Origin: an uncultured Deferribacteres bacterium
GTDB taxonomy: Bacteria; Zhuqueibacterota; JdFR-76; DREG01
Length of the DNA: 64,000 nt
NCBI GenBank assembly: GCA_913009825.1
Contig: CAJVYQ010000002.1
Location: 82,675 to 146,674, forward strand
Direction: 5' to 3'
Within the stretch, counting starts at the first letter, position 1; every line of letters starts with the position of its first letter. The notes under the pieces were generated by a model. The model did no database searches and was not told the DNA's origin. It saw only the letters and a list, made by a program, of their open reading frames with translations. Both the position numbers and the translations under genes were made by a program. This document shows, piece by piece, positions 12,031-41,731 of the stretch.

Positions 12031-12055
12031 TTAATAATTGGTTGGGGAGGTTTAC

Positions 12056-15250: not shown

Positions 15251-15260
15251 TGAGGTGAAT

Positions 15261-18299: not shown

Positions 18300-21200
18300 A
18301 TGTTCAATTTAAAAAAGTTCTTTACAAGCTTTTTTACTTATTTTTTTATAATTGGTTTTTCAACTGTTTTTGCCCAAATTGAAGCCATTAATACAGAGGC
18401 AGGTATAAGCACTAATTATAAATTTACATTTGGGATAACAGGCACTTTAGACCCATCAGCTACTTTTTCAATTACTTTTCCGTCCGGATTCGATGCGTCT
18501 AATGTTCAAATTGTTGGATCTACTACAATGACTGGTGGATTTACCAATATTGCAGCAACTGCTGGCACGGTAACTTTTATTCGAGATGGCACTGGAAATA
18601 ATGCAAGTGGCGGGGGGCATATTATTACAATCGGGATTGTTGAAAATCCCTCTACTTCTAAGATCACCGGAAATATATCATTTTCAGGTGCAAATAGTGG
18701 CGGGGCCGGCTTGGGAAGCGCAAGCCTTTCTAACACTGTCACAATAGCTCCCAGTTCTTTAAATTACTTTACCATGACAAGTGTTCCAGGCAGTGCAACC
18801 GCGGGAGCCACTTTTGACGGTGTTTTGGTTACGGCCAAAGATGTTTACAATAATGACAAAACAGATTACGCCGGCACCGTGAGTTGGAGCAGCACAGACG
18901 GCAGTGCAACGCTGCCGACGACAGGATTGACATTTTCGGGGGAGTCAAAGACGTTTAATGGTTTTGTATTGAAAACATCGGGCAGTCAAACAATTACGGT
19001 TACCGATGGTTCCATCAGCAAAGAGAGCAGTGTGATCACGGTGAGCGCAGCCGCGCCATCAAGTTTTAATATATCGAATCCGGGCACTCAGGTAGCGGGC
19101 AGCGGCTTTAGTTTAAGTATAACCGGAGCCGTAGATGCTTATGGGAATTCAGTAAGCGGCACTGCAACAGTCGCGTTTTCCGATGCCGGGGCACACGCAT
19201 CGCCCAATGCCACCTCGCCGACTATTACGAACATCACCGTAACCAATGGCAGCGGCAGCGCTACCCAGGTGTTGGTAAATGCGGAGAGCGGAGTGCAATT
19301 GCAGGCGACGTTAGGTAGTGTCTCGCAGTCAACAAATGCGTTTACGGTGAATGCAACGACGTTGAATGGTTATACATTGTCCAATCCCGGCAGCCAGACA
19401 GCAGGCACGGGATTTGATTTGACGATAACGGATGCGATAGATATTTATGGCAATGGAGTAGACGGCACCGCCACGGTAGAATTGTTACCGTCCGGGTCTC
19501 ATAATTCCCCGGATGGTTTTTCGCCGTCAGTTCAGAATATAGCCGTAACGGCCGCGAGCCCGGGAACGGGAAGCGCAGTCCAGATTTTATACAAGTCGGA
19601 GAACAATGTTCAGCTCCGCACCAGTATGGGGGGGATTCAACAGACGGGCGCTGCCTTTAATGTTGGCGTGAGCAGTTTATCTTATGTGAAAGTCTTAACG
19701 GATGCAAGTGGTAACACCGGAGAAGTTGGCGCGCAGACCTTAGGAGCGGGTAATACGCTAACGGTACATGCCGGCGGATTTGATGGCTATGGTAATTATA
19801 ATGTTGACGAGCCTGTAAGTTGGAGTGTCTCCGGCGGAATTGGGAATATGTCTCCGGCAAGTGGTACATCTTCAACTTTAACGGCAAGTACAGAGGGCAG
19901 CGGGTCGATCAAGGCAGACCATGCTGCCGCAACCGATGGAGTTAGTGGTACGATAACGGTAACGAAAGGAACATTGAGTTATGTTCGTGTAGTGGAGGGG
20001 TTGAGCGGAGCCGGTTCAGCCCTGGGTTCCCGAACCTTGACGGCAGGTCAATCGCTTACGGTTCATGCGGCGGGCTATGATGCGACGGACAATTATCTGG
20101 GAGATTACACGGTAAATTGGACGGTAAGTAATGGGATCGGTAGTTTCAGTTCCGGGAGCGGGGCAAGTACTGTATTTACTGCAGAAACGGTTGGTAATGG
20201 AGTGATCACGGCGCATCATTCTACGGCTACTGATGGCGCTTCAGGTACTATTACTGTGAATTATGGAACATTTAGCACATTCCAGGTAGCAGCGGATTTA
20301 AACGGAACAAATATTGGCAATAAAACAGCAGGGCAATCCTTTAACATTAGTGTTGTTGCAAAGGATGCCTATAATAATACGGTGCAAAATTTTACGAACA
20401 CAGCCAATCTTACTGATCTAACCGGAGATTTGAATACTACTACCGGTAATTTTGTTGAAGGTGCCTGGACAGGTCAAATAATAATAATGAAAAGTAAAAC
20501 GGGAAACACAATTACGGCCTCAAATTCTGGAAAAAGCGGCACATCAAATGCTTTCAATGTAGCCCCGGCATCGCTGGAACATTTTACGTTTGCCACCGTT
20601 TCAAGTCCGCAAACGGCGGGAACGGATTTTAGCGTGACAATTACAGCAAAGGATGTTTATGAAAACACCGTTACTTCCCACATGGCGGCGGCAAATTTAA
20701 GCGTAAACACAGGCGCCGGAACATTCAGTCCTACTACTACAGGCGGTTTTACCGCCGGCGTGTGGACAGGCAATATGACCGTTACCAAAGCGCAGACGGA
20801 TGTGAAAATCACGGTTAGCTACAGCAGTAAAAGCGGGCAGTCCAATTTGTTCAATGTAGGTTCGGGCGCGCTGTATCACTTTTCCATCGCTCCGGTCAGC
20901 AGTCCTCAAACTGCGGGCGCTCCGTTCAGTATTACCGTTACGGCGCAGGATGCCAACGATAATACGGTTACCGGTTTTTCCGGTACGGTAAATATAAGCA
21001 ATAAAACCGCGTCCATCAGCCCCGTCATCAGCGGGAATTTCAGTAATGGAATCTGGATTGGCAATGTGACGATCACACAAGTTAAAACATCCGATCGGAT
21101 CACCGTCTTGAGAACCGGAGGGGGAACGGAAACCGGCGTTTCCAACACATTTGATGTAACCACAACGGACATAGACCATTTTACCGTTGCCACTATCAGC

Positions 21201-24200
21201 ACTCCGCAAACGGCAGGCGTGGCGTTCACCATTACGGTAACGGCGGAAGATGCCAATAATAATAAAGTAACCGGTTTTAACGGCACTGTTTCTATCGGCG
21301 ATGAGACAGGTTCCATAAGTCCCAAAACCAGCGGCAGTTTCAGCAATGGCGTTTGGTCGGATGATGTTAGCATCACGGAAAGCAAAACAGGCAACACTAT
21401 CACCGTAACAGGCGCCGGGAAAAGCGGTCAATCCAACAGTTTTAATGTGAACCCTGCTTCGCTGGATCATTTCACTATTGCCGCCATTTCCAGTCCTCAG
21501 GTTGCCGGAGCAGCGTTTGGGGTAACCATTACTGCTAAAGATACTTACGAAAATACGCTGACAAATTATACAAATTCAGCCGGTTTGAGCGTTAACACAG
21601 GCGCAGGAACATTCTCGCCAACGACAACTACCGGAGGGTTTACGGCAGGAGGTTGGTCGGGAAATGTTACCGTTACAAAAAAGCAGGCGGATGTTTTGCT
21701 CGTTGTAAAAGACGGCTCCGTCAGCGATACTTCCAATGCATTTAATGTGCGCGCCGCGCAGGTGGCCGGCATTACGGTGCGGGATGCCGCCCTGGGTTCC
21801 GGAAATGATGTCGGCGATCGTTCGTTAACGCTTGACCAAACTCTAATCTTGTATGCAGCGGGTTATGACCAGTATGGTAATTTTTCTCATGACGTGACCG
21901 TAAGCTGGAGCGTAACAGGAAACTTGGATTCTCCCAATCCGTCTACCGGAAACTCAACCGTTTTTGATCCCGCCACGCCCAACACAAGCGGTACCATTGT
22001 GGCGGACAGCGCGACGATTTCCGATGCAACCGGAACCATTACGGTTGGCGCTATCGCATCCATTAAAATACGCGATGCGGCAAACGGAGCGGGAAATGAA
22101 ATAACGACAGCGCAATTGACGGCGGACGATTCATTAACTCTTTACGCCGCCGGGTATGATGCCGGCAACACGTTCATCGGCGATGTACAGGTTGACTGGT
22201 CTTCTACCGGTTTGGTGCCTGTTGTATCTGTTATTTCTGTCTCCGGGGTTGTTTTTTCTCCCATCGAAGCGCCAAAATCGGGCACAATAACCGCTACACA
22301 TGCAACGGCCGGAACTAAAAATGTTACCGTCACTGTTACTCCGGGTGTTCCAACGGGCGCTATCAGTCTTACGGCAGATCCTACGGCGCTGCCCGCGGAC
22401 AACAGCAGCACTTCCGCCATCACTTCCGATGTGATTCACGATGCGGATGGAAACGCTGTTGCTTCAGGGACATTGATTACGGTTTCAATAGATGATACAG
22501 ATTTGGGCACCATCACTTCTCCGGATGCCGGCGCAGGCTATGCCGGAACTCAAATTGCTACGGACGCTTCCGGTAAAATTACGTTTGTCCTTCAAGCCGG
22601 ATCGGTTGGCGGTAAAGCTTCCATTTTTATTTCCAGTGTAACCGGCAGCGCTGCCGGCAATACGGTGGTTCAGATTACAAATTTGCGAATTTTGTCCATT
22701 GAAGCGCCGGATCTGGTCAGCCAGGGACAGACGTCGGTTCCGGTTACCATGACGGTTTACAATCTGGGCGATCAGCCGATAACGGATGTTACGGCCAGTT
22801 TAAGCTTTACGGGACCGGCCTCACAAAATTTAAACGGCGATTATGCCAATATTTCCACAACTATTCCTTCTGTCCCGGCAAATCAGCAGATGTCCATTCT
22901 GTTTAATGTAACGGTTTCCACCGGTGCAACAACAGGTATTCCCGTAACTATCGATGGCGGACTGAGCGGAAAAGTAAACGGTAATCCTGTTTCCAACCAG
23001 GGCGCGGAAACAACGGATAACTGGACGGTGCAGTCACCGGCGAGTTTTAAAATAACAAAAGTAGCTACCGACATAGATAGCGTTACCATCGGTCAGCAAA
23101 ACCTTGCCGTGGAAATGCGGGTGGAGAATACCGGCCAGGCAACGGCGCAGATTACCAACGCTACGCTTCATTTTAAAAAGGGCGCGACCAACGTCAGTTC
23201 ACAATATTCTGTATCGCCGGCGCCGGCAAATCCGACAAGTTTGACAGGTGGTACAGCAGATATTTTTGAATTCGTTGTGGATGTTTCCGCCGGCGCCGAG
23301 TTGGGAACTATCACGCTGGACGGTGAAATCGCCGGTACCGACAATAATTCAAACCGCGTAATTACAGACACCGGCGCAGATACTACAGATAATTGGGAAG
23401 TGATCGCAGCAGGCGTTTTACAGATTACATCGCTCACCACAACCCAGACGACGGTGACGCAGGGTCAAACCACACCCTGGTACATTGATCTGAATGTGAA
23501 AAACAACGGCGGCGCCAATTTCACCCTGGACAGCGCCAGAATCAGCATTTACATCGGCACGGAAGTGACGCAGGAATACACCATCGTGAACCCGGCAAAA
23601 TTTTGGAACAACGGTCTGTTATCCTCCACACTGCCGGCGCATGGCCAGGATAAACTCCGTTTCAAAATTGATGCTACCGGTGTAACAAAAGGATTGGCTA
23701 CAATCCAGGGGCGTTTGTGGGTTAAAGATGAAATCAGCGGTTCACAATTATCCGAACAGACAAACGGAAACTCCGGCAGCGTAACGGTTCAGTCTCCGGC
23801 ACAACTGCAAGTGGTATATGTATTGGCAGAAAAATCCACGTTTACTGCCGGCCAGAACACACTGTGGCGTTTAATTGCCAATGTAAAAAATTCCGGTGAA
23901 AGCGCTATCCGGATCGATACTTCCAAAGCGGTATCGTCCCTGGAATTCAAAATCGGCCAGAATGTGTTAACAGATTTTGAAGTTGAACAACCGGTGGGTA
24001 TCGATCAACAGCAGGGAGCCTTTGTTTTGGCAGGCGGGCAAACCGGATTGCTGACGTTTAATATCGTTCAGACGACGTATTCCACCGGCACATGCCGGAT
24101 AAAAGCGATCATCGGCGGCAGAGAGGTAAATAGCGACCGCTCTCTGAATAGCAGCAATTTAACTTTTGTAACCATCGTGAATTCTTCCACGGTTTATATT

Positions 24201-27200
24201 CAATCGACAATGAACAAAGCCGTAAACGAGCCCAATGTTAATACCGGACAAACTTTTGATATCGACGTGAATGTTTTTAACGGCGGTGGAGAAGCGGTTA
24301 AAAATGTCAGGGTTGCGCTGCAGAGTGACGATGCCTCCACATTTAATACCCCGGTAACTATTTCACGCATAGCGGCGGGAAATGCCGGCGTCGCCTCTTT
24401 CCATGTGATTGTTTCCAGCAATGTCGATTCCGTTGAGACATTTACCGCCGCTATCCTCTCGGCTATATCCGAAAACACCGGACAGCCGGTGGATATCGCA
24501 CCTGCTCAGGATTCCACTGCCACGGCGTTCGTCCGAAAGCCGGGTGGTTTGCAGGTTCTTTCCGTGACCACTTCCCAGGATACGGTAAGCGCCGGACAGA
24601 GGTGGCCGAGAACCTGGGATATTTACGTTGCGGTGAAAGATACCGGAGATGCGGCTCTGGAGTTCAAGTCGGTTAGTAAAGAGAATATTCAGTTTTCGAT
24701 TAGCGGCAATGTGCAAACCGACTATTTAGTCATTCCTCCCACGTCCCTTGGGGGTGAGGATTTTATTTTAGCCGGCGGAGAAATTGATACGTTGATTTAC
24801 ACGGTTCGAACCACCGGCGGTTTGGGCGGTAATGTGACCATTGCAGCCAATGTTTCTGCAGAGGATAAAAACGATCAGAGAACCGTTACCGCATCGGGAA
24901 ACGGGTTTATACGGGTTAACACGGCTGCCGAAGTAAGAATATTCCGTACCGTGATAAGTTCATCCAATCCGGCGGATGTAAACACAAGGCAGATTTTTTA
25001 CATTGCCGCCGAGATTGAAAATGGGGGTTCCGAAGCAGTGGAAAATATGCATCTCAGTCTCTCCACCAACGGTCCGTCCCAAATTATTGATAAAACCAAA
25101 CTGGTGAATTCCATTGCTGTGAACAAAACGGAAACGGTTCTGTTTGCCGTAAAAGCTGATTCTGTGGAGAACCTTGTTGGTGAGACTTTCATTGTTACCA
25201 TTGACAGCGCCAAATCGGCGGTCAGCCATGAACCGGCTCTTGTCCGTGTTCCCGCCGATAATAACGCTGCGGTTAAAATTGAAAAGCCCGCCGAAGCGCG
25301 TTTGGAAATTGAATTGAACGACCGGGACGGTATTTTAACGGCTAACCAATTGTTGGATGTAAAATTGTTTTTGCGTAACGAAGGGACGGCGGCTTTTAAA
25401 GGAACAGGGCAGATTGAGTTGGTTATACCTGAAAATTTTCGCAAAATAATGCCGTCCGATACCTTTTATGTTGCAAGAGACACCGTTTTGATTTCCGCTA
25501 GTAATCCTGCCCAATGGCAATTTCTGGCGCCCGATTCTTCCCAGGGACCGGATACGTTATTTGCCAACTGGATTATGTCTCCCCTGGATGAAAACACAAA
25601 CGCCGCCGCAGATATTTTTGCGCCGGCAGATACGATGGAATTAACCACTATAGGTAAAAATGAGATTATCGGATCACTGGCAATTGTATCTCCGGATGGC
25701 GCAACAGATAATGTCGTTTCCACGGAACAGGAATTCGTCCTGCGCCTGACCGCAACAACATCGCAGAATTTGCAGGATGTGACCGCCACGCTTATTCTGC
25801 CCGCTAATTATTCCACCGTTTCAAATTTGGTGCAAAAGGTACCGAATGACACTTTATTATGGACAATCAGAGCTCCGGAAATAAAGGATCAGACGGAGAA
25901 AAATATCATCGTAAAATTACAGGCGAAAGATGATAACAATTCCGTTTTTAACGGCGATCCGGACACGCTGAAAATTAAAACGGTCAGCCGGGCAAATTTG
26001 AATATGAGCGCCGGAATTTCGCAGCCACCCGGCGCCCGGAACGGAGTTTTATCACGCGGACAACAATTTACCATACGGGCGATTATTTCTAACCTGGGGC
26101 AGGCGGATGTCACCGGTTCGGCAGAAATCAGTTTGGATTTGGGGGCGACGGGTGTAACCGTCGCTGAACCGCTAACCGGAACGGTGCATTTTCAACCCGG
26201 CGCCGCTACGTCTGATCCCGTTGACTGGAGTGCAACGGCGCCCAACGAACTGACTTCATCGGCATTTATCACGGTTCGAATGGAAACAACCCCCAACGAT
26301 GAAAATACAAATCGAACCGCGTTTTATTCGGTGGATGTAATTCAGTTTGAAGTATCCACTATCGAAGCGGCGCAACTTTCCAATAAACTTGAAATTACCG
26401 ATCCGGCCGGTGCGCTGAATGGGGTTTTATCCACGGAGCAGAATTTTACGCTGAAAGCAACCATTCAATCGCAAAACAGCACAAACGTTCGTGCCGAACT
26501 GATTTTGCCTACAGGCGCCAATTTTTTCACCGAAAATGCGGTAAAGACGGCCAACACGGGAACAGATGTTGTTTCGTGGATTGTAAAAGCGCCGGCGACT
26601 ACGGTTCAAAATGCCAAAATATATGTCGTCACCCGGGCTGTGGATGAAAACAGCAATAAACCCATTGAAAGCGACCGGGACTCCATACTTGTAACCGTGC
26701 AGAAAAAAGCAATGCTGGAATTAACGGCCGGCACGCCAAAATCTATTCTTTCTGTCGGCGAAGAATTTGAAATTAGCGCCGTAGTTAATAATTCAGGAGA
26801 AGCGGCTCTTTTAGATGAAGCGGAATTGAGAATTAATTTACCGGCTGGATTTACTACCGCGGCTGATACAATTAAGGAAACTGCGCAACTTACCACTTCC
26901 TGGATTGTGAAAGCGCCATCCGTGCCAAGCAGTGTGCCGCAAAATATCCGGATATCTATCCAACGTACGCCTCTGGATCAGAATACAAATAATTTTGCTA
27001 CGGTGAACATTTCAATCAGTACCGTTGTTGTGCGGGTGGAAGCCAAGCAAATGGAATTTCTAAAACTAACTTCGTTTACTCAATCCTCAATTGCTGAAGG
27101 TGATAAAAATGTACCGTTGTTGGGTTTTCAGCTCAAAAACAGAGGTAGCCGGGGCTCTAACCCAATCCATTTGCGGGGAATAAAAGTTTATATTTATGAT

Positions 27201-27869
27201 AATGACGGCAAGCTGATTTCTCCGCAATCGATGTTTTCCGGTTTAACAGTGCGTAATTTTACAGATACTACCATTGTTTACGGTCATGTAACCAATCTTC
27301 CTGCAGAAAACCCGGTGAGCATCCCGTTCACGAATATCCTAATTCTGACTGCTGGCGCGCCTTATTCTCTTATCGGTATTTACGGGGATGTGTTGCCTGC
27401 TGCGGCAAAGGATATATTCTTTGTAACCGTGGAGAACAATTCTGATGTGGATGCGGTAGACGGCGTAACCAAACAGAGTGTAACCCTGGTTGATGAACGG
27501 GGAATTTCCATCACCAATTTGGATATAAGCTCTACTAAAGCGGTTATTTTGGCTGCTGATTTCAACACCACGTTCAGAAATTTTCCCAATCCATTCGGAA
27601 AGCAGGATCGTCCGACGACAAGTTTTGTTTATTTTTTAGTAAATGATTCGGATGGCGAGCTGCGATTGTTTACTCTGACCGGCGATCTTGTTTGGTTGTA
27701 TAAATTTTCATCATCCGATCCGGCCGGACAACGGGGCATTCATTCGGCAGATATTGTATGGGATGGTAAAAACGGGAATGGTTTCACTGTTTTAAACGGT
27801 GTTTATGTCGCCGTTTTAACAACCGCAGACGGAAGACGTACCGTAACAAAAGTTGCTTTTGTAAAATAG
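18300..27869 (+). CDS. giant secreted repeat-containing surface protein (3189 aa) with C-terminal T9SS-type sorting domain
   Basis: It has a signal peptide. There are tandem ~100-aa Ig-like repeats (F[NT]V..A.L.HFT.A.[VI]SSPQTAG..F.VT[IV]TA.D.Y.NTVT). A middle region has ~170-aa repeats with the TTDNW motif. A C-terminal region has ~270-aa repeats with [DE]ENTN and SWIVKAP motifs. The last ~95 aa (NFPNPF...GVYVAVL...) match the Por secretion C-terminal domain pattern. Confidence 0.85.
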   Translation: MFNLKKFFTSFFTYFFIIGFSTVFAQIEAINTEAGISTNYKFTFGITGTLDPSATFSITFPSGFDASNVQIVGSTTMTGGFTNIAATAGTVTFIRDGTGNNASGGGHIITIGIVENPSTSKITGNISFSGANSGGAGLGSASLSNTVTIAPSSLNYFTMTSVPGSATAGATFDGVLVTAKDVYNNDKTDYAGTVSWSSTDGSATLPTTGLTFSGESKTFNGFVLKTSGSQTITVTDGSISKESSVITVSAAAPSSFNISNPGTQVAGSGFSLSITGAVDAYGNSVSGTATVAFSDAGAHASPNATSPTITNITVTNGSGSATQVLVNAESGVQLQATLGSVSQSTNAFTVNATTLNGYTLSNPGSQTAGTGFDLTITDAIDIYGNGVDGTATVELLPSGSHNSPDGFSPSVQNIAVTAASPGTGSAVQILYKSENNVQLRTSMGGIQQTGAAFNVGVSSLSYVKVLTDASGNTGEVGAQTLGAGNTLTVHAGGFDGYGNYNVDEPVSWSVSGGIGNMSPASGTSSTLTASTEGSGSIKADHAAATDGVSGTITVTKGTLSYVRVVEGLSGAGSALGSRTLTAGQSLTVHAAGYDATDNYLGDYTVNWTVSNGIGSFSSGSGASTVFTAETVGNGVITAHHSTATDGASGTITVNYGTFSTFQVAADLNGTNIGNKTAGQSFNISVVAKDAYNNTVQNFTNTANLTDLTGDLNTTTGNFVEGAWTGQIIIMKSKTGNTITASNSGKSGTSNAFNVAPASLEHFTFATVSSPQTAGTDFSVTITAKDVYENTVTSHMAAANLSVNTGAGTFSPTTTGGFTAGVWTGNMTVTKAQTDVKITVSYSSKSGQSNLFNVGSGALYHFSIAPVSSPQTAGAPFSITVTAQDANDNTVTGFSGTVNISNKTASISPVISGNFSNGIWIGNVTITQVKTSDRITVLRTGGGTETGVSNTFDVTTTDIDHFTVATISTPQTAGVAFTITVTAEDANNNKVTGFNGTVSIGDETGSISPKTSGSFSNGVWSDDVSITESKTGNTITVTGAGKSGQSNSFNVNPASLDHFTIAAISSPQVAGAAFGVTITAKDTYENTLTNYTNSAGLSVNTGAGTFSPTTTTGGFTAGGWSGNVTVTKKQADVLLVVKDGSVSDTSNAFNVRAAQVAGITVRDAALGSGNDVGDRSLTLDQTLILYAAGYDQYGNFSHDVTVSWSVTGNLDSPNPSTGNSTVFDPATPNTSGTIVADSATISDATGTITVGAIASIKIRDAANGAGNEITTAQLTADDSLTLYAAGYDAGNTFIGDVQVDWSSTGLVPVVSVISVSGVVFSPIEAPKSGTITATHATAGTKNVTVTVTPGVPTGAISLTADPTALPADNSSTSAITSDVIHDADGNAVASGTLITVSIDDTDLGTITSPDAGAGYAGTQIATDASGKITFVLQAGSVGGKASIFISSVTGSAAGNTVVQITNLRILSIEAPDLVSQGQTSVPVTMTVYNLGDQPITDVTASLSFTGPASQNLNGDYANISTTIPSVPANQQMSILFNVTVSTGATTGIPVTIDGGLSGKVNGNPVSNQGAETTDNWTVQSPASFKITKVATDIDSVTIGQQNLAVEMRVENTGQATAQITNATLHFKKGATNVSSQYSVSPAPANPTSLTGGTADIFEFVVDVSAGAELGTITLDGEIAGTDNNSNRVITDTGADTTDNWEVIAAGVLQITSLTTTQTTVTQGQTTPWYIDLNVKNNGGANFTLDSARISIYIGTEVTQEYTIVNPAKFWNNGLLSSTLPAHGQDKLRFKIDATGVTKGLATIQGRLWVKDEISGSQLSEQTNGNSGSVTVQSPAQLQVVYVLAEKSTFTAGQNTLWRLIANVKNSGESAIRIDTSKAVSSLEFKIGQNVLTDFEVEQPVGIDQQQGAFVLAGGQTGLLTFNIVQTTYSTGTCRIKAIIGGREVNSDRSLNSSNLTFVTIVNSSTVYIQSTMNKAVNEPNVNTGQTFDIDVNVFNGGGEAVKNVRVALQSDDASTFNTPVTISRIAAGNAGVASFHVIVSSNVDSVETFTAAILSAISENTGQPVDIAPAQDSTATAFVRKPGGLQVLSVTTSQDTVSAGQRWPRTWDIYVAVKDTGDAALEFKSVSKENIQFSISGNVQTDYLVIPPTSLGGEDFILAGGEIDTLIYTVRTTGGLGGNVTIAANVSAEDKNDQRTVTASGNGFIRVNTAAEVRIFRTVISSSNPADVNTRQIFYIAAEIENGGSEAVENMHLSLSTNGPSQIIDKTKLVNSIAVNKTETVLFAVKADSVENLVGETFIVTIDSAKSAVSHEPALVRVPADNNAAVKIEKPAEARLEIELNDRDGILTANQLLDVKLFLRNEGTAAFKGTGQIELVIPENFRKIMPSDTFYVARDTVLISASNPAQWQFLAPDSSQGPDTLFANWIMSPLDENTNAAADIFAPADTMELTTIGKNEIIGSLAIVSPDGATDNVVSTEQEFVLRLTATTSQNLQDVTATLILPANYSTVSNLVQKVPNDTLLWTIRAPEIKDQTEKNIIVKLQAKDDNNSVFNGDPDTLKIKTVSRANLNMSAGISQPPGARNGVLSRGQQFTIRAIISNLGQADVTGSAEISLDLGATGVTVAEPLTGTVHFQPGAATSDPVDWSATAPNELTSSAFITVRMETTPNDENTNRTAFYSVDVIQFEVSTIEAAQLSNKLEITDPAGALNGVLSTEQNFTLKATIQSQNSTNVRAELILPTGANFFTENAVKTANTGTDVVSWIVKAPATTVQNAKIYVVTRAVDENSNKPIESDRDSILVTVQKKAMLELTAGTPKSILSVGEEFEISAVVNNSGEAALLDEAELRINLPAGFTTAADTIKETAQLTTSWIVKAPSVPSSVPQNIRISIQRTPLDQNTNNFATVNISISTVVVRVEAKQMEFLKLTSFTQSSIAEGDKNVPLLGFQLKNRGSRGSNPIHLRGIKVYIYDNDGKLISPQSMFSGLTVRNFTDTTIVYGHVTNLPAENPVSIPFTNILILTAGAPYSLIGIYGDVLPAAAKDIFFVTVENNSDVDAVDGVTKQSVTLVDERGISITNLDISSTKAVILAADFNTTFRNFPNPFGKQDRPTTSFVYFLVNDSDGELRLFTLTGDLVWLYKFSSSDPAGQRGIHSADIVWDGKNGNGFTVLNGVYVAVLTTADGRRTVTKVAFVK
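20270..21740 (+). repeat. five tandem ~290-bp intragenic repeats encoding Ig-like domains of the giant protein
   Basis: The repeated protein units start NAFNVAPASLEHFTFATVSSPQTAG, NLFNVGSGALYHFSIAPVSSPQTAG, NTFDVTTTDIDHFTVATISTPQTAG and NSFNVNPASLDHFTIAAISSPQVAG. Similarity is also visible at the nucleotide level. Confidence 0.7.
27578..27866 (+). other. T9SS (Por secretion) C-terminal sorting domain of the giant protein
   Basis: NFPNPFGKQDRPTTSFVYFLVNDSDGELRLFTLTGDLVWLYKFSS..GQRGIHSADIVWDGKNGNGFTVLNGVYVAVLTTADGRRTVTKVAFVK fits the CTD pattern NYPNPFN..T.I.Y.L......L.IYD..G.LV......G.....WDG.N..G..V.SGVY.Y.L......K. Confidence 0.7.
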
Positions 27870-27879
27870 AAGGTTAAAT

Positions 27880-29787
27880 ATGAGAACAAAATTTTTTCGA
27901 TCCCTCTTTTCAGCACTTTTTTTACTGGTCTTTTTAACCGGTGCCACGGCACAGGATGTTCAGGAAGGAGGGATTGCCAGTATTTTTTCCAAAGGAGTAG
28001 GCGCCCGTCAGATGGGTTTGGGCGGCGCGGTTGTGGCTTATCCGCAGGATCCAACGTCCGTTTTCTGGAACCCGGCGGGGATGGAATATTTACAGCAAAA
28101 GAGTTTTTCTCTGTTTTACGCTTCTTTACTGGCAGGTGCGTCCTATAATTTTGCCGGATATGTTCATCCCACGTTAAATATCGGCACCTTTGGCGTTGGC
28201 GTCTCCAGGATTACAACAGGAGATATACATCACTTGGAATTTACACCGGATATTCTGGATAATTTCAGTTCTGACCAGAGTGAATTTTATCTTTCTTATG
28301 CAAAAATCATCCGCAATCTGTTCTCTTTTGGCATAAATTTAAAACTGGAAAGGGAGGTCATTTTTAATTCTTCCGGAGTAGGTTTTGGTGTTGATGTTTC
28401 TTTTCTCTACCGTCCGGGAATTGACAATGTTTTTCTACGGGATATTCAACTGGGTTTGACGGTTTTAAACGCGTACGCGCCCAGAATAAAATTAGAGGAT
28501 CAGATCGAAGCCATTCCCCATCGAATTTTTCTGGGCTTTGCCAAACCGTTCCGGCTTGGCAGAGACCGGAAGCCGCTCTATTTTCTGTTTTCCGTGGAAG
28601 AAGGTGATCGGGAGTCGATCAAATTCAGAACCGGTCTGGAGTACTCTTATCAAAATTTAGGCATGCTGCGATTGGGATTCAATGACGACGGCCTCTCCTT
28701 TGGCGCCGGCGCGGCATATAAACAGTTTCAGCTTGATTATGCATATGGGAAACTGGCAAACGGCACTTACAACGGTCACCGGATTTCTTTTACGGCGCAA
28801 TTCGGGAAAACCAAAGAGGAGCTGTTGGAAGTTGCCAGAGTTAGGAGAGAACGGGAAATCAACCGGAAAGTGGCATTGGAACAACAACGCAAACGGCAAA
28901 AAAACATTCAAAAGCTGTTGAAAGACGCCAACCAACTTTACAAAGAAGAAAAATATTTTGAAGCCAAAGTAAAGTTTTCACAGGTGCTGGAGCTGGATGC
29001 CGATAATCTGGAAGCCGCTGAAATGATCGATGAAAGCGATGCGCGCATGAAAGAGATCAGCGATCAGGATATTCAAAGGATTTTGGCCGCCAGACAGGAG
29101 GAGACAGAAAAAAGTAAGACGGAAGAATATGTAAGCAAACACGTAAAACTGGGACAGGGGTTTCTGACCAAAAGGGATTTCAATTCGGCCATAAGGGAAT
29201 TTAATTTGGCGCTGGAGCGGGTTCCGGAAAGTGAATCGATCAAGGATTTGGTTGACAAAGCAAAAACCGAATTGAAAAAGATAATCAACAAATTAATCGA
29301 TAAAGCCGATAATTTAGCTAAAAAGGGTGAAATTGACGGCGCGCTTGAGTATTTTAATCAAGCCGAACTTCTTAGCATGAATGATGAGGTGCGCTACAAG
29401 GAAATTGAAAAACGGATTTCGCAGCTTGAAACAAAGCTGAATGTTGACGATTATCTCACAACCGGTATCATTGCCTACCGGGCGAAAAACTGGACGGAAG
29501 CCAGAAAGAATTTTGAGAAAGCAATGAAACTGGTGCCGAATGACACCCGGATTACGCGATATTATAAAGAAGCGGAGAGGCGTGAAAATGCCCGGGAAGA
29601 ACGAATGACGCCCGATGTTAATAAGCGTTTTATAAAGGCGTTTAATCTTTATATGAGCGGCCACCTTCAGGAAGCTATCGATATTTGGGAAGCTTTGTTG
29701 GAAAAACAACCATACAATAAAAGGATTATCGATGTCATCGACAAAGCCAAAGATGATTTGAAAAAACAGCAGAGAATAAAAAAATAG
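27880..29787 (+). CDS. outer-membrane beta-barrel protein (PorV/FadL-like N-terminal domain) with C-terminal coiled-coil/TPR-like domain
   Basis: It has a signal peptide. The motif GARQMGLGGAVVAYPQDPTSVFWNPAGM and alternating amphipathic beta strands over ~300 aa suggest a barrel. The C-terminal ~300 aa are K/E-rich and TPR-like. It is immediately downstream of the T9SS cargo gene. Confidence 0.4.
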   Translation: MRTKFFRSLFSALFLLVFLTGATAQDVQEGGIASIFSKGVGARQMGLGGAVVAYPQDPTSVFWNPAGMEYLQQKSFSLFYASLLAGASYNFAGYVHPTLNIGTFGVGVSRITTGDIHHLEFTPDILDNFSSDQSEFYLSYAKIIRNLFSFGINLKLEREVIFNSSGVGFGVDVSFLYRPGIDNVFLRDIQLGLTVLNAYAPRIKLEDQIEAIPHRIFLGFAKPFRLGRDRKPLYFLFSVEEGDRESIKFRTGLEYSYQNLGMLRLGFNDDGLSFGAGAAYKQFQLDYAYGKLANGTYNGHRISFTAQFGKTKEELLEVARVRREREINRKVALEQQRKRQKNIQKLLKDANQLYKEEKYFEAKVKFSQVLELDADNLEAAEMIDESDARMKEISDQDIQRILAARQEETEKSKTEEYVSKHVKLGQGFLTKRDFNSAIREFNLALERVPESESIKDLVDKAKTELKKIINKLIDKADNLAKKGEIDGALEYFNQAELLSMNDEVRYKEIEKRISQLETKLNVDDYLTTGIIAYRAKNWTEARKNFEKAMKLVPNDTRITRYYKEAERRENAREERMTPDVNKRFIKAFNLYMSGHLQEAIDIWEALLEKQPYNKRIIDVIDKAKDDLKKQQRIKK

Positions 29788-29799
29788 AGCGAATGGCAG

Positions 29800-32700
29800 G
29801 TGTTTAAAAAAGTATTAAAAGAAGAACTTCGGGTTGCGGCCGAGAATGCATCGTTGCAAAAATTGCGGGATTTTGTGACCCGTGTCGGCAAAAAGCACCG
29901 CTTTTCCGATAAGCTGATAAATGCATTTAAATTAGCCGTCGATGAAGCCAGTACAAATATTATCCGTCATTCTTATCGGGACCGGACCGGTGAAATTACT
30001 ATTCGGGCAGTGATACGGAAAGAGAGTTTCACCATTTCTTTGATCGATCAGGGCAGATATTTTGATCCCACAAATGTGAAGAACCCGGATCTGAAGCGCT
30101 ATGTCGCCATCGGTAAAAAAGGCGGCCTCGGTATTTTTATGATCCGAAAGTTGGTTGATGATATCAGCTACTCCAAAACTGCTGAAGGGAATGAACTTCG
30201 CTTAACAAAAAATAAAGGGATTGAACGAAAAAAACGATTTGCTCTGCCCAGGGTTCCCGGCTCCATGCGGGTGAAATACTACTCAACCTCCATGGCTATT
30301 GTAAGTTTCATCGTAGTTTTCGGCTATTTTTATAATTATTTTAAAACGGATGGCAAAATCGTTGAAAATTCCCTCGATCGCATGGAATCAATCTCGCGCA
30401 TTTTTGCTCAAAACGTCATCGATGGGCTGCAAGCGGGTGACTTTCTCAGTCTCTCGAAAGCGGCAAAAGTGATTGCGCAGGAAGATTCTTCCTTCCTGAA
30501 AGCGGCCATTGTCACAGATTTGGATAACCTGGTTCAGGGAACCACAGATCCGGAAAAGATTTCGCCTTTCAGTCCGTTTGATTCCGGTCAAAAAACAAAA
30601 TCTATTCGGAAAAACATACAAATTGTCCGGAAAGATATTTCGACTTCAGCCGGAGCAGACGAATATTTTTTGGTAGAAAGACCGGTTTTTTCTCCCGGTG
30701 CTAATGGAAAAGTGCTGATCGGCCGGGTTTATCTTTTTGTTCCCATTAAGCCTGTTTATGATTCCGTTTCCCAAAAAAGAATCGGCGACTTACAAACTGC
30801 GGCACTTATCCTTATTTTAGCCAATTTGGGTGTAGGCTTGCTTATTTTCCTCATTTTAACTCCTCTACAGAAGCTCTCTAATTGGGTGGGTAAAATGGGG
30901 CAGGAAGATATCCGTGATCAAATTGATATCGATACGTCCAATGAAATTGGCAAGATTGCCCAGGCTTTCGGCGAAATTACAGACAAATTCCGTGAAAGTC
31001 AGCGCTCCTTAGCGGATCAGGAAAGAATCCAGCAAGAGATGCACCTGGCCAAAGAGATTCAGCAAACTCTCCTGCCTGCCGGTTTTCCGGATGTACAGGG
31101 ATATGAAATTGCCTCCTATTATGAATCAGCCAAAGAGGTCGGCGGTGATTACTACGATTTTGTTGATGTGGACCGGGATCGGATCGGCGTGGTGGTTGCG
31201 GATGTTTCCGGAAAGGGTGTGCCCGGCTCTCTGGTAATGACCATGATCCGCACAGCACTCCGCACGGAAGCCAGAGGAGTCTCTTCTTCGGCAGAGGTTC
31301 TGGCAAAGGTGAACAACTTTGTCATCGGCGACATCAGAAAAGGCATGTTTGTCACTCTATTTTACACTATTTTGGATTCCCGGAAACGCCGCGTCACATT
31401 TGCCAGCGCCGGTCACAATCCCATGATTCTTTATCGGTTCAGCACCCAAAAAACCTACTACCTTAATCCCAAAGGATTTCCGGTGGGTATTTCTGTAAGT
31501 GATAAAGACCTGTTTACGCAATCAATCGAAGATGATACGATTCAATTGACCAAAGGAGATATCATCCTCTGCTACACGGATGGCATAACCGAGGCGATGA
31601 ATTCCAAACGGGAGCTTTTCGGCGAAGAGAGATTGCTGGAAGTTATCCGTAAATTTGGACATCTTCGCGCCAAACATTTCACCGAAAAACTGAAGGAAGA
31701 ACTCCTCTCTTTTACGGAGGGGCAGGTTCAGTATGATGACATCACCTTTGTGGTGATTAAAGAGAAAATGAGTGCGGAAGAATCGGAGTTCGAACGGGCT
31801 AAAGAGATCTATTATGATATGCTCAATGGCAAATCAATGACAGAGGCCTGTAAAATCCATGGGATGCCGGGTTCCACTTTTTCTCATAAATACCGGGTAA
31901 AACTCGAGGAACTAGGTGTCGAGGAGTTTAAAAAGGAGTTTGAAACCACTTCCGTTGAAGCCAAGCACCTGAGTATCGAGGAATTGACAAAAATTTATGA
32001 TATTATTCGTAAAAATCCTCAATGGGGAGCAAAAAGGATTTCCAACCAATTAATTACCGCAGAGTACGGATTAACAGAGATTCCGGAAAAACGGATTTAC
32101 GAAGAGTTGATCAGAAAACGGTTGAATACAAAAGCTTTGCGGGAGGCCTATGTTAATCGCGGCACCAATAAAAAACGGATGAAACCTCCCGGTACCCCCA
32201 TGCTCACGCTGGATGGGGAGATAATTATGGACGACCAGCTTGGGCCTAAACTCCATGCCCCGGTTTTGGATGAAATGGAGATCGAGAAACCGCTGGTTTT
32301 CGAGGAAAAAGAGGTGGAAAAAAAACCGGTTGCCGAAAAACCAAAGCCGGTGAAAAAACCACCGAAAAAGAAATCCATCGAAGAAAAAGAAACGTCCGAA
32401 TTAATTCTGGAAGATATTATTGAACTATTCGATAAAACCAGGGACAGCGAAGAACCGGCAGAACCATCTGCAACAGGAGATTTGAGTGAGGATTTAAAAC
32501 CTGCAGAGATACCCGAAACCGACGGGTTGGAAGATGTTTCCTCAGATGTGGAATATGACCGGGATATTCAAAAATTGTTGGGAAATATTACAGAGGAACC
32601 GGAAGTTGCCGAACAACACGCCGGGGCGGAAATCGATTTCTCTGATCTGTCTGCTTCCGAATATGCCCAGGATCTTTTCAAAGATAAAACCAATGGTGAC

Positions 32701-33618
32701 AGCAAGGAAGGAGAATCTCCCGAACCGCATCTTACGGAAGAGAAATTTGATGAAGAAAATGTGGGAAAGAAAACCCCGGAACAGATATTTGACGATCTTT
32801 CTGTGAATATAGATAACGCTTCGGAGAAAGAGGTTGATTTTGATGATTTTGCATCTCTGATTACAGGCGATGAAATTAAGACATCCAATGAGATTGAGGC
32901 GGATGAAAAATTTCTTAAAACAGAAAGCGCAGGACTTGTTGTGGAAAAAGATGAGGATCAAACCCTGATCGATGATCAAAGAAGAGAGCAACATTTATCT
33001 TCGCCGGCAGAAGATAAAAATGTAGAAGAAATTTTTAAAGAAATTTCCGTTGATATTGATGGAGATGAAAATGAAACGGCTCATGATTTAATAGATCAAG
33101 CCGATAATAATATTGAAGAATTCTTCGATTTTATTTCCGGCGAAGTAATTAATTTTCAGGAAGAGTTAATTGATATTTCCGGTGAACCGGATGCCGGCTC
33201 AGAAGATAAAAAGAATGCGAAAAAACGGGTCAAAAAACGGAAGATCGACGGACAGCAAAAACTGCTCATCGCCGGCGGGCATTTCTATATGCAGAAGAAG
33301 TACGACAGGGCGATTCAAATATTTCATCGTATTATTGATAAATATCCCAATAATATTGAAGCCCATTATAACTTAGGTAACAGTTATTTTAGATTGCGCC
33401 GCTTTGATGAAGCACAGTCTGCCTATGAAAAAGTGTGCGAATTAGACCCCACATTTCTGGATGCGCTGGAAAATCTGGGTGTCATTTTTGCCAATAAAAG
33501 AAAGTTTAAGGAAGCAATAAGAACGTGGAAAAAGATTCTGGAGTTTGATCCAAAGCGAGAGGACATCAAAAAAAACATTGAAAAAGCGCTAAAGATCAGT
33601 AGAAAAATAAAATCTTAG
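29800..33618 (+). CDS. multidomain partner-switching regulator: RsbW/SpoIIAB-like serine kinase (HATPase) - TM - sensor loop - TM - HAMP - PP2C (SpoIIE/RsbU-like) phosphatase - acidic disordered region - TPR
   Basis: N-terminus: AVDEASTNIIRHSY...GGLGIFMIRKLVDDISY (anti-sigma-factor-type HATPase_c_2). Two TM segments flank a ~150-aa loop, with a HAMP-like segment after TM2. The PP2C motifs are EVGGDYYDF, VVADVSGKGVPGSLVM and CYTDGITEA. A ~350-aa D/E-rich low-complexity region follows. The C-terminal TPR units include YNLGNSYFRLRRFDEAQSAYEKVCELDP. GTG start. Confidence 0.7.
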   Translation: MFKKVLKEELRVAAENASLQKLRDFVTRVGKKHRFSDKLINAFKLAVDEASTNIIRHSYRDRTGEITIRAVIRKESFTISLIDQGRYFDPTNVKNPDLKRYVAIGKKGGLGIFMIRKLVDDISYSKTAEGNELRLTKNKGIERKKRFALPRVPGSMRVKYYSTSMAIVSFIVVFGYFYNYFKTDGKIVENSLDRMESISRIFAQNVIDGLQAGDFLSLSKAAKVIAQEDSSFLKAAIVTDLDNLVQGTTDPEKISPFSPFDSGQKTKSIRKNIQIVRKDISTSAGADEYFLVERPVFSPGANGKVLIGRVYLFVPIKPVYDSVSQKRIGDLQTAALILILANLGVGLLIFLILTPLQKLSNWVGKMGQEDIRDQIDIDTSNEIGKIAQAFGEITDKFRESQRSLADQERIQQEMHLAKEIQQTLLPAGFPDVQGYEIASYYESAKEVGGDYYDFVDVDRDRIGVVVADVSGKGVPGSLVMTMIRTALRTEARGVSSSAEVLAKVNNFVIGDIRKGMFVTLFYTILDSRKRRVTFASAGHNPMILYRFSTQKTYYLNPKGFPVGISVSDKDLFTQSIEDDTIQLTKGDIILCYTDGITEAMNSKRELFGEERLLEVIRKFGHLRAKHFTEKLKEELLSFTEGQVQYDDITFVVIKEKMSAEESEFERAKEIYYDMLNGKSMTEACKIHGMPGSTFSHKYRVKLEELGVEEFKKEFETTSVEAKHLSIEELTKIYDIIRKNPQWGAKRISNQLITAEYGLTEIPEKRIYEELIRKRLNTKALREAYVNRGTNKKRMKPPGTPMLTLDGEIIMDDQLGPKLHAPVLDEMEIEKPLVFEEKEVEKKPVAEKPKPVKKPPKKKSIEEKETSELILEDIIELFDKTRDSEEPAEPSATGDLSEDLKPAEIPETDGLEDVSSDVEYDRDIQKLLGNITEEPEVAEQHAGAEIDFSDLSASEYAQDLFKDKTNGDSKEGESPEPHLTEEKFDEENVGKKTPEQIFDDLSVNIDNASEKEVDFDDFASLITGDEIKTSNEIEADEKFLKTESAGLVVEKDEDQTLIDDQRREQHLSSPAEDKNVEEIFKEISVDIDGDENETAHDLIDQADNNIEEFFDFISGEVINFQEELIDISGEPDAGSEDKKNAKKRVKKRKIDGQQKLLIAGGHFYMQKKYDRAIQIFHRIIDKYPNNIEAHYNLGNSYFRLRRFDEAQSAYEKVCELDPTFLDALENLGVIFANKRKFKEAIRTWKKILEFDPKREDIKKNIEKALKISRKIKS

Positions 33619-33714
33619 GGAAAAAGATTCGCTAAGTCGATCAAATTCAGGTTGATTTTTTGAGAAATAAAAACTATATTAGCGAAAAATTATTTAAGGA
33701 TTAAGGAGGGAGTT

Positions 33715-34410
33715 ATGGAAGGAATCCAGGTTTCTATTTCGGCTGTTGGACCCAATAACGATGTTTCTGTAATCAAAGTCGGTGGTTATATCGATACCAC
33801 TACCTCCGCGGAAGTTGAACGGGCTCTGGATTCAATTTTAAAGGAGAAGAAGTACAACATCATCATCGATCTGAGTAATGTTGATTACATCAGCAGTGCC
33901 GGTTGGGGTATTTTCATCAGTGAAATAAAAGGAATCAGGGAAAAGAGCGGCGATTTAAAACTTGTCAACATGATTCCCGATGTTTATGAAGTGTTTGAAC
34001 TTTTGGAGTTTCATTATATTTTAAAAGCATTCGACACCTCAGAAGAAGCGCTGAACGATTTTAAACATAATTCTTTCAAATTATCCGGAAGCTCTGTCCT
34101 GGACCAGGAAGATAAAACGCAAAAAGAGGATACTGCGTCTTCTGCTTCACAATCCTTGCTTAACTCAACTCAATCAACGGCGCAAGTTGCTGCAAAGTCT
34201 GCTGCCGGTTCGGTTAATGAAAAAATTAAACAGATTATTATGGAAAAACCCGATATTTCTGTTTTGGATATCAAAAAAGAACTTAATACAGAGGCGTACA
34301 ATTTTACAAAAATAGGTATCCTTGAAGTTTGGAAGCGGTTGCGAAAAACAGGTCTTTCTTCAAAGAAAAAAAGAATGAAATATTTTAAAACTCATGCATT
34401 CCAATCATAA
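33715..34410 (+). CDS. STAS-domain anti-sigma-factor antagonist (RsbV/SpoIIAA-like) with C-terminal extension
   Basis: The STAS domain includes the conserved phosphorylatable Ser context (DLSNVDYISSAGWG). An S/T/Q-rich linker and a ~60-aa C-terminal domain of unknown function follow. It is directly downstream of the kinase/phosphatase fusion. Confidence 0.7.
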   Translation: MEGIQVSISAVGPNNDVSVIKVGGYIDTTTSAEVERALDSILKEKKYNIIIDLSNVDYISSAGWGIFISEIKGIREKSGDLKLVNMIPDVYEVFELLEFHYILKAFDTSEEALNDFKHNSFKLSGSSVLDQEDKTQKEDTASSASQSLLNSTQSTAQVAAKSAAGSVNEKIKQIIMEKPDISVLDIKKELNTEAYNFTKIGILEVWKRLRKTGLSSKKKRMKYFKTHAFQS

Positions 34411-40115: not shown

Positions 40116-40124
40116 TTTTAACTC

Positions 40125-40195
40125 TGGGGAGTCGTCTAATGGCAGGACGGTGGTCTCTGGATCCACTGGTCGGGGTTCGAATCCCTGCTCCCCAG
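40125..40195 (+). tRNA. tRNA-Gln (anticodon CTG), probable
   Basis: The U1:A72 pair (TGGGGAG/CTCCCCA) with discriminator G is a Gln identity feature. The anticodon loop is CTCTGGA. The T-arm is CGGGG-TTCGAAT-CCCTG. The anticodon stem has one mismatch. Confidence 0.6.
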
Positions 40196-40209
40196 CAAGA
40201 TAAACAGAC

Positions 40210-40283
40210 GCGCCCGTGGCTCAATTGGATAGAGCATCTGACTTCGGATCAGAGGGTTGGGGGTTCGAATCCTCCCGGGCGCG
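40210..40283 (+). tRNA. tRNA-Arg (anticodon TCG)
   Basis: The acceptor stem GCGCCCG/CGGGCGC pairs, with discriminator G. The D-arm is GCTCAATTGGATAGAGC. The anticodon stem-loop is TCTGA-CTTCGGA-TCAGA. The T-arm GGGTTCGAATCC is present. Confidence 0.8.
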
Positions 40284-40305
40284 CTTAAGAAAAACAAGAG
40301 TTTAG

Positions 40306-40488
40306 AGGCACACGTTCGCTTCTCATTTGCTGCAAAAAGGTGTTTCGCTTTATATCGTCTCAAAGTTATTAGACCACAGTGATATTAAGACCACAGAAAT
40401 TTACGCTCATTTAGCCCCTCAGACTTTTAATGATGTGGTTAGATTATTGAATGATGGGGAGATGAAGTTGGGGGTGAGTAAGACATAA
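40306..40488 (+). pseudogene. tyrosine recombinase/integrase C-terminal remnant (last ~60 codons only)
   Basis: It translates to [48 protein letters not shown]..., the integrase catalytic box II with the nucleophilic Tyr. An in-frame TAG stop immediately precedes it. It directly abuts the tRNA-Arg 3' end. Confidence 0.7.
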
Positions 40489-40589
40489 AGTAACACGTTT
40501 GAATTTTTTCTTGACATATAATTTTTTTCAGATTATTTTAAATTATTCAGGCAACAACTAATAAAACGAATTTTAATTGATGGTTTATC

Positions 40590-41728: not shown

Positions 41729-41731
41729 TAG

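Follow-up and report, generated by a model that had tools for sequence, protein, structure and literature searches.

A membrane kinase–phosphatase and a STAS protein with paralogous transposase-type helix-turn-helix-like domains beside a giant secreted-protein locus

The stretch of DNA analysed here, the window, comprises 64,000 nucleotides of contig CAJVYQ010000002.1 from an uncultured Deferribacteres bacterium (assembly GCA_913009825.1), and the coordinates given below are positions within it. Two neighbouring genes on its forward strand, on which all parts of the locus described here lie, encode a sensor protein of 1272 amino acids (aa; 29800..33618) and a STAS-domain protein of 231 aa (33715..34410). 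Judged from their sequences, the two genes supply a complete, catalytically intact triad of kinase, phosphatase and STAS substrate, with kinase and phosphatase on one membrane protein, and would form a phospho-switch of the partner-switching type. The module is real, widespread and uncharacterised. Its most distinctive feature, at the level of sequence comparison, is a transposase-type helix-turn-helix (HTH) region in the sensor together with the paralogy between this region and the C-terminal domain of the STAS protein.

The sensor gene starts with a GTG codon, and the N-terminus that this gives fits the family consensus MFKxVxKEEL. From this end the protein is made up of a kinase, a transmembrane (TM) helix, a periplasmic domain, a second TM helix, a HAMP domain, a PP2C phosphatase, two HTH-like domains (HTH1 and HTH2), a short motif, an acidic stretch and a tail of tetratricopeptide repeats (TPRs). 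The RsbW/SpoIIAB-type serine kinase (aa 1-140, 29800..30219) matches Pfam HATPase_c_2 over aa 13-137 (E 1.6e-28) and can be aligned with Bacillus subtilis RsbW (6m36_A). It is followed by a basic stretch and by the putative first TM helix (aa ~161-182, 30280..30345), a weakly hydrophobic, aromatic-rich segment whose assignment is demanded by the topology; the second helix, TM2 (aa 331-356, 30790..30867), is strongly hydrophobic, with a Kyte-Doolittle mean above 2. Because kinase and phosphatase must both be cytoplasmic, the predicted topology is N-in and C-in with a periplasmic loop at aa 183-330 (30346..30789). This loop is the presumed sensor domain, for which a family search returned no match, and it is detectable across phyla by hidden Markov model (HMM) despite a mean identity of 18%. 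A HAMP domain and coiled-coil linker (aa 350-405, 30847..31014; Pfam HAMP at aa 350-395, E 9e-6) lead into the PP2C/SpoIIE phosphatase (aa 406-655, 31015..31764), which matches Pfam SpoIIE/PP2C over aa 459-654 (E 8e-50) and aligns with the structures of RssB (3es2) and Rv1364c (3ke6). Beyond the HTH region lies the acidic, poorly conserved stretch (aa 813-1150, 32236..33249), with a net charge of -58, repeated short hydrophobic-acidic motifs, 30% aspartate and glutamate over aa 813-1140, a mean identity of 14% and no match in a family search. The C-terminal domain holds about three TPRs (33250..33615; Pfam TPRs at aa 1160-1260) and is specific to the KSB1/Calditrichota forms of the family. A preliminary description of this DNA had proposed the fusion of HATPase, TM pair, HAMP, PP2C, acidic stretch and TPRs in this order in one chain of 1272 aa, and the domain scans bear it out. 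The acidic stretch of that description is real at aa 813-1150; what it had overlooked is a conserved helical region at aa 656-812, which lies outside the acidic stretch.

The sensor was aligned with 30, then with 56 full-length homologues that are 41-91% identical to the window protein. The kinase residues of the N-box (E49/N53), the G1 box (D83/G85) and the G2 box (G108-G111) are all invariant and line up with those of B. subtilis RsbW. Invariant in the phosphatase are D450, D453, D468, G471, D594, G595, D646 and D647, and its motifs GGDYYD (D450, D453), ADVSGKG (D468), TDG (D594) and DD (D646, D647) align with the RssB and Rv1364c structures. Kinase and phosphatase are also the best conserved parts of the sensor, with mean identities of 66% and 74%, and both enzymatic domains look active by these measures. 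Loss of the ATP-lid residues or of the metal-binding aspartates, which the preliminary description had singled out as the mark of inactive relics, is not seen: the ATP-lid and Mg-binding residues and the metal-binding aspartates are invariant among the aligned homologues, also where the sensors are only 42-66% identical. The idea that one or both catalytic domains are relics and that the protein is only a scaffold was rejected on this ground and is extremely improbable.

The STAS gene is preceded by an AGGAGG ribosome-binding site. The STAS domain itself (aa 1-118, 33715..34068) matches Pfam STAS over aa 14-112 (E 1.8e-19) and has a mean family identity of 79%; its AlphaFold2 (AF2) model superposes on SpoIIAA from the complex with SpoIIAB with a TM-score of 0.89 and a root-mean-square deviation of 1.6 Å. 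The predicted phospho-acceptor is Ser61 (codon 33895..33897), an invariant residue that corresponds in the alignment to the DSAG serine of TM1442 and, by our own residue count, to Ser58 of SpoIIAA as well. It lies within the invariant sequence DYISSAGWG, and the segment DYISSAGWGIFISE of the STAS protein is likewise invariant. A disordered, variable linker (aa 119-162, 34069..34200; 11% identity, AF2 confidence score pLDDT <50 at aa 124-162) connects the STAS domain to a C-terminal HTH_21-like domain (aa 163-231, 34201..34407) of net charge +9. The presence of a linker and an extra C-terminal domain had been noted from the start, and this domain turns out to be both conserved and folded: its AF2 model (aa 165-228) consists of four helices with a pLDDT of ∼91.

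The conserved helical region of the sensor, aa 656-812, comprises HTH1, HTH2 and an invariant KPPGTP..L.G motif. HTH1 (aa 656-718, 31765..31953) is HTH_28/HTH_23-like, as judged from sub-threshold profile matches and AF2 helices. HTH2 (aa 719-790, 31954..32169) is HTH_32/HTH_21-like, with a net charge of +8 over aa 719-800. The motif, K-PPGTP-x-L-T-L-D-G (aa 795-806, 32182..32217), is invariant, is present only in the long forms of the sensor and may be a docking or phosphorylation site. Conservation in this region is comparatively high for the sensor, with mean identities of 65% for HTH2 and 72% for the motif after it. The family consensus of the region matches HTH_32 (1.9e-6), HTH_28 (3e-5) and HTH_21 (8.5e-5), as well as HTH_29 and HTH_23, and its score is 28.8 bits against a curated threshold of 33.7. 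Among 22 individual members, matches at E<=0.01 were obtained to HTH_32 in 16, HTH_28 in 10, HTH_21 in 8 and HTH_23 in 6. The HTH segment of the window sensor matches models of transposase N-termini, IS481 at 2e-5 and IS3 at 1e-3; like the consensus and member matches, these lie under the curated cut-offs. AF2 models the region as two helical bundles (pLDDT 80). Pfam and further profile scans detected no rve/DDE catalytic domain in either the sensor or the STAS protein.

Sensor and STAS protein are related through these domains: hhalign pairs the STAS C-terminal domain with aa 722-788 of HTH2 as homologues (probability 96.9%, E 1.3e-10), and the two AF2 models have an identical helix pattern and similar charge (+9 versus +8). 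An exhaustive phmmer search with the STAS C-terminal domain retrieved 43 cluster representatives only, and the best match is C-terminal in nearly all of them. Two of the proteins retrieved carry the domain in multiple copies. P0254 (487 aa) is built of at least five tandem domains of this type and exceeds the Pfam HTH_21 threshold (82 versus 28 bits); P0248 (386 aa) combines a STAS domain with two of them.

Database searches returned more than 2,000 homologues for each protein, at E-value cut-offs of 1e-10 for the sensor and 1e-5 for the STAS protein. They are annotated as ‘SpoIIE family protein phosphatase’, ‘Serine-protein kinase RsbW’, ‘tetratricopeptide repeat protein’, ‘STAS domain-containing protein’ or ‘anti-sigma factor antagonist’, and their named sources include KSB1, Calditrichaeota, Cloacimonas and ‘Bacteroidetes’ metagenome-assembled genomes (MAGs). 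The cassette ranges over KSB1, Calditrichota, Ignavibacteria, Zixibacteria, Eisenbacteria and Latescibacterota-type genomes. Domain HMMs mapped on 80 species-representative loci distinguish several forms. The long form, with acidic stretch, TPRs and motif, occurs only in KSB1/Calditrichota-type genomes; the KPPGTP..L.G motif is found in all four long forms and in none of eight others. Short forms that end mostly within ∼160 aa of HTH2, devoid of acidic stretch, TPR tail and motif, are carried by Eisenbacteria, Ignavibacteria, Zixibacteria, FCPU426 and an Omnitrophota-labelled MAG. In two Latescibacterota-type MAGs the whole system is a single open reading frame (ORF), running from kinase, TM helix, periplasmic domain, TM helix, HAMP and PP2C to HTH2 and three STAS domains (L003 10278-14684, 1469 aa; L006 10081-14412, 1444 aa). 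The unfused form, found in many lineages including archaea, consists of ordinary PP2C, STAS and kinase genes with no HTH. The preliminary description had looked for a non-canonical output in either the STAS C-terminal domain or the TPRs; the former holds up as a conserved, folded domain, and the latter was ruled out as a core effector, the TPR tail being confined, like the acidic stretch and the motif, to the KSB1/Calditrichota forms.

Sensor and STAS genes are adjacent in every relative with downstream sequence at hand, and the STAS C-terminal domain is present in seven of the seven loci that have a separate STAS gene after an HTH-bearing sensor. It is absent from the STAS domains of the fused Latescibacterota proteins and from every unfused kinase/phosphatase/STAS set among the remaining loci. 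It follows from this pattern of co-occurrence that STAS is always covalently tied to one HTH2-type domain, either its own or that of the sensor. A ParA/BcsQ-like ATPase gene adjoins the module in Ignavibacteria, Zixibacteria and Latescibacterota-type loci. It stands between the sensor and STAS-HTH genes in the Ignavibacteria locus L007 (12780-13520) and the Zixibacteria locus L011 (∼1625-2390); in L003 and L006 the genes downstream of the fusion ORF are those of a ParA-like ATPase, of a small ORF and of the cytoplasmic TPR protein described below, and then two plain STAS genes. The STAS-HTH gene of L007 is itself followed by a GGDEF diguanylate cyclase (14286-16022, SiaD-like, 5e-45), with polysaccharide-deacetylase genes nearby.

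Two roles can be considered for the paired domains. The favoured one, set out in full below, is DNA binding. In the other, the HTH-like domains would be protein-protein tethers: the STAS C-terminal domain would dock on HTH2 of the sensor and keep the substrate near both catalytic domains, and the output would be the binding of STAS to a protein target, as for SypA, SiaC-SiaD and HsbA-HsbD. Such a target could be a ParA-like ATPase, a diguanylate cyclase or a factor involved in handling the giant protein. Tethering would account for the strict co-occurrence of both paralogous domains and for the missing STAS copy where STAS is already fused to the sensor; it would not call for the canonical first HTH (HTH_28/23-like) that the sensor also keeps, and the strongly basic character of both domains would be expected to cause repulsion over pairing. 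The GGDEF gene after STAS-HTH in L007 and the ParA/BcsQ-like gene between sensor and STAS in L007 and L011 are consistent with protein targets, but no cyclase or ParA-like gene adjoins the module in the window. The 79% family identity of the STAS core suggests several binding partners, and the lack of a structural match to a solved DNA-binding protein in Foldseek searches of PDB and BFVD points the same way. STAS-to-enzyme outputs are also known (PMC8457831, PMC5085249, PMC13555669). On balance, tethering is a serious but somewhat doubtful alternative to DNA binding.

The sensor gene does not stand alone. Upstream of it, the cassette comprises genes for a cytoplasmic TPR protein (375 aa, 16641..17768), which recurs in equivalent neighbourhoods of other phyla; a secreted ORF of 155 aa (17788-18255); a giant secreted protein of 3189 aa (18300..27869); and an outer-membrane barrel of the PorV/PorQ family with a coiled-coil/TPR region of ∼300 aa (27880..29787), which ends 12 nucleotides (nt) before the sensor start. 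The spacers between the genes measure 10-45 nt, and 96 nt separate the sensor from the STAS-HTH gene that closes the series. The giant protein is Cys-free and rich in T, S, A, G, V and N. It has a C-terminal domain resembling type A of the type IX secretion system (T9SS): its last 133 aa score 20.6 bits against Por_Secre_tail, just missing the cut-off of 23, and give matches to the PorZ and PorU C-termini at 1e-5 and 7e-4. The PorV/TPR protein is above the cut-off of the NCBIfam PorV/PorQ model (121.7 versus 90 bits). The 155-aa ORF, for which a family search gave no match, bears a likeness, judged by eye, to the N-terminal domain of the giant protein.

Giant protein and PorV/TPR protein are conserved upstream neighbours of the module. 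In each of the nine fused loci with upstream sequence, and also in L081 and L082, the sensor gene comes third after those for the giant protein and the PorV/TPR protein, the PorV/TPR gene always lying between the other two; an equivalent linkage is found at three unfused PP2C/kinase/STAS loci (L019, L022 and L054), which brings the total to 14 loci under about seven phylum-level labels. The position beside a giant surface-protein locus, to which the preliminary description had drawn attention, is therefore conserved synteny and not coincidence. Since the module has been inherited just downstream of a giant secreted protein across phyla, it probably controls a cell-surface structure, and by an unusual route. 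A literature search for a connection between T9SS or PorV and STAS/RsbU systems found no described link.

The same neighbourhood raises the question of the direction in which the signal runs. In inside-out signalling of the kind known for LapD, the cytoplasmic phosphorylation or STAS-binding state would be passed through HAMP to the periplasmic domain, which would have the giant protein or the periplasmic TPR part of the PorV-like protein as its target and so control export or retention. The topology of TM helix, periplasmic domain, TM helix and HAMP would allow this, and so would the homology of the periplasmic domain across phyla and the invariable place of the sensor right after the giant-protein and PorV/TPR genes, with spacers of 10-12 nt. 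However, no folded part of the sensor is less conserved than the periplasmic domain (18% identity), and HAMP-PP2C proteins such as SiaA and the RsbU-like sensors are understood to signal from the outside in. Inside-out signalling is very unlikely, and the favoured phospho-switch with a cytoplasmic output has the periplasmic domain as its input.

The spacer before the STAS gene contains a promoter-like element of the sigma-70 type, TTGATT-17-TATATT (33652..33680). The pattern TTGAYW-16/17-TATATT occurs in the spacer of five of the five KSB1/Calditrichota-type loci, the relatives including L009, L052, L081 and L082. This conservation suggests that the STAS gene is transcribed separately, probably from a promoter of its own, and that promoters of the ordinary sigma-70 type are used in this lineage. 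A wider promoter and terminator scan of the cassette was, this element excepted, uninformative. The promoter is bracketed by an 8-bp inverted repeat, TTCGCTAA/TTAGCGAA (33628-33635 and 33679-33686), which was considered as an operator and rejected: it occurs at chance frequency (three found in the window, 2.96 expected) and is not conserved in the relatives.

In partner-switching modules the kinase sequesters a sigma factor or another defined target, for which the gene is usually part of the operon. ORFs of at least 120 aa, essentially all plausible genes of the window, were scanned with Pfam, and none has a Sigma70 domain. Nor was a sigma gene found in the scanned flanking ORFs of L004 and L007, or in L081 and L082, where the ∼10 kb downstream contain only housekeeping or unrelated genes and the upstream flank is taken up by the giant-protein and PorV/TPR genes. 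The statement that no sigma factor lies nearby, made at first for the adjacent genes, can be extended to the 64-kb window and these related loci. The module most likely has an output other than a neighbouring sigma factor. The missing gene is nevertheless no proof of a sigma-independent output, because HsbR and CrsR act on RpoS, and rpoS is not described as part of the hsbR or crsR gene cluster (PMC6482189).

Canonical partner switching on a distant sigma factor would have the membrane-tethered kinase sequester the factor and unphosphorylated STAS release it, as CrsR and HsbR do with RpoS. The kinase is a typical anti-sigma kinase domain of the RsbW/SpoIIAB type, HsbR and CrsR provide the precedent of fused phosphatase-kinase proteins acting on RpoS (PMC6482189), and the genome stretch inspected amounts to 64 kb. 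Neither the window nor any of the related loci examined yielded a sigma gene, and a distant factor would leave unexplained both the conserved HTH domains in the two partners and the constant association with the giant-protein cassette. A distant sigma factor is an unlikely target, and DNA binding by the HTH domains remains the preferred output.

In full, the favoured explanation runs as follows. The sensor would be an inner-membrane protein, probably dimeric. On the cytoplasmic side, the RsbW-type kinase would phosphorylate the STAS protein at Ser61 and the PP2C domain would remove the phosphate again, as the intact motifs and knowledge of the RsbW/RsbV, SpoIIE and SypE families suggest. By analogy with related families, the periplasmic domain would set the balance of phosphatase and kinase through TM2, HAMP and the coiled-coil linker; the analogous balance in SypE is set by a receiver (REC) domain in place of the membrane input. 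The anatomy of the proteins and the co-occurrence of their domains point to an output via a basic, transposase-derived domain of the HTH_21/HTH_32 type tied to STAS, carried in most lineages by the STAS C-terminus and in Latescibacterota by a sensor HTH2 fused to three STAS domains. Unphosphorylated STAS-HTH would be held on the membrane-bound kinase and phosphorylated STAS-HTH would be free. The HTH domains would bind DNA, with feedback on the co-inherited cassette of giant secreted protein and PorV-like outer-membrane protein. This explanation is held tentatively, with a little less than even confidence, and the output step is its weakest.

Several observations weigh against it. The best Pfam matches of the window proteins are sub-threshold, HTH_psq (0.012) and HTH_32 (0.03) for the sensor HTH region and HTH_Tnp_Tc3_2 (0.017) for the STAS C-terminal domain. 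Foldseek against PDB and BFVD returned no significant match, its top hits being weak paired-domain, KorB and homeodomain entries, and a PDB profile search gave nothing relevant. Of the two-part HTH, the STAS protein carries the second half alone, the DNA-binding role of HTH_21 is a prediction, and membrane anchoring is unusual, though known, among DNA binders. No conserved operator was found. The GGDEF cyclase and ParA-like ATPase that flank the STAS gene in Ignavibacteria point to protein targets, and HsbR and CrsR show that the gene of a targeted sigma factor can lie away from the switch (PMC6482189).

A more far-reaching version of the favoured explanation can be formulated. Here the STAS protein would be a phosphorylation-switched DNA-binding regulator with a domesticated transposase HTH, which would cooperate or compete with the copy in the sensor; the sensor would report the periplasmic state of the giant T9SS-type protein and its PorV-like partner; and a DNA-binding domain would replace the sigma factor across much of the FCB superphylum. 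Taken as a whole, this version is doubtful.

The neighbouring genes in the window are housekeeping genes (gyrB/A, pdxA, ftsEX, hrcA-grpE-dnaJ, pta, obg, dprA, gltX, icd, dnaX, recR, recA-recX and alaS), with two further regions of note. A low-GC patch at 40001-42000 (GC fraction 0.32 versus ∼0.43) contains a pair of unannotated ORFs that overlap (40590-41309 and 41306-41728), of which the latter has a weak match to the PHD_like antitoxin family (0.0046), and may be a small acquired island. In the region 10290-13180, a PilM_2-like ORF (11077-12030) lies between ORFs 10290-11033 and 12038-13180, both lacking a family match, and the region is possibly a divergent pilus or assembly locus.

Partner switching is understood mostly from sigma-factor control in Firmicutes and from a few proteobacterial exceptions such as SypA, and almost no regulation has been studied experimentally in the phyla that carry the present module. 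The question of its output is made testable by a built-in candidate output domain, the HTH, by natural fusion variants, which indicate the parts that must stay together, and by a fixed genomic partner, the giant secreted protein with its PorV-like protein, whose constant presence hints at what is controlled. Should the HTH domains bind DNA, a DNA-binding module of transposases would have been recruited into a phospho-switch, and a first regulator would be at hand for the giant T9SS-type surface proteins of bacteria outside Bacteroidota.

A fused kinase-phosphatase with no adjacent sigma factor, which the preliminary description had put forward, is real but already known from SypE/SypA, HsbR/HsbA, CrsR and Rv1364c. 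Undescribed are the membrane/HAMP input joined to an N-terminal kinase, the paired HTH in sensor and STAS protein, and the association, kept across distant phyla, with genes for a giant T9SS-like protein and a PorV-TPR protein. A close parallel, set beside the sensor by its published description, is SypE of Vibrio fischeri, which has an N-terminal RsbW-like serine kinase of ∼140 aa with the key residue Asn52, a middle input domain and a C-terminal PP2C domain, and acts on a STAS protein (PMC3610818, PMC8256260). The likeness extends to the whole plan, with N-terminal kinase, input and C-terminal PP2C in one chain, a STAS substrate, and Asn53 here in the place of Asn52. The target of SypA is called unknown in the review PMC8256260, and no sigma factor is named in the consulted text of it and of PMC3610818. 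In contrast with the TM, periplasmic domain, TM and HAMP arrangement described here, the input of SypE is a cytoplasmic REC domain, for which Pfam Response_reg gave no match in the sensor. SypE also lacks HTH, acidic stretch and TPRs, SypA is a STAS domain only, and the syp locus encodes a polysaccharide instead of a giant protein with a PorV-like gene.

HsbR/HsbA of Pseudomonas and CrsR/CrsA of Shewanella resemble the module in that phosphatase and kinase/anti-sigma functions are fused in one protein, which controls a single STAS protein (PMC6482189). HsbA has several partners, among them the diguanylate cyclase HsbD (PMC6482189, PMC5085249), and in this respect the Ignavibacteria relative L007, with its GGDEF gene directly after STAS-HTH, is similar. 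HsbR and CrsR differ in their order of REC, PP2C and kinase last, in being soluble, in having RpoS among their targets and in having no HTH domains.

In the SiaABCD system of Pseudomonas aeruginosa, SiaA is a membrane HAMP-PP2C sensor, and aa 335-652 of the present sensor match nearly the full TM-HAMP-PP2C model of SiaA (E 1.2e-15). The score is 57 bits against an NCBIfam equivalog cut-off of 700, and the kinase of that system, SiaB, is a separate protein. SiaC, on which that system acts, is not known to be a classical STAS protein. The output of SiaABCD is not a sigma factor (PMC8457831); it is the cyclase SiaD, whereas no cyclase is encoded in the window.

Rv1364c of Mycobacterium tuberculosis is likewise a multidomain phosphatase protein, and its solved fragment (PDB 3ke6) aligns with the sensor PP2C domain. 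Its order is phosphatase, kinase and STAS with a PAS input, and it has a link to SigF. A comparable fusion of kinase, phosphatase and STAS domains into one chain is seen in the Latescibacterota relatives. Unlike the membrane sensor, Rv1364c is cytoplasmic.

The HTH region, finally, has its counterpart in the N-termini of IS481/IS3/IS630-type transposases, in which HTH_28/HTH_23 and HTH_32/HTH_21 domains form an equivalent two-part helical arrangement and to which the sub-threshold matches are consistent. In contrast with these enzymes, the proteins described here have no rve/DDE domain, and their HTH domains are embedded in signalling proteins.

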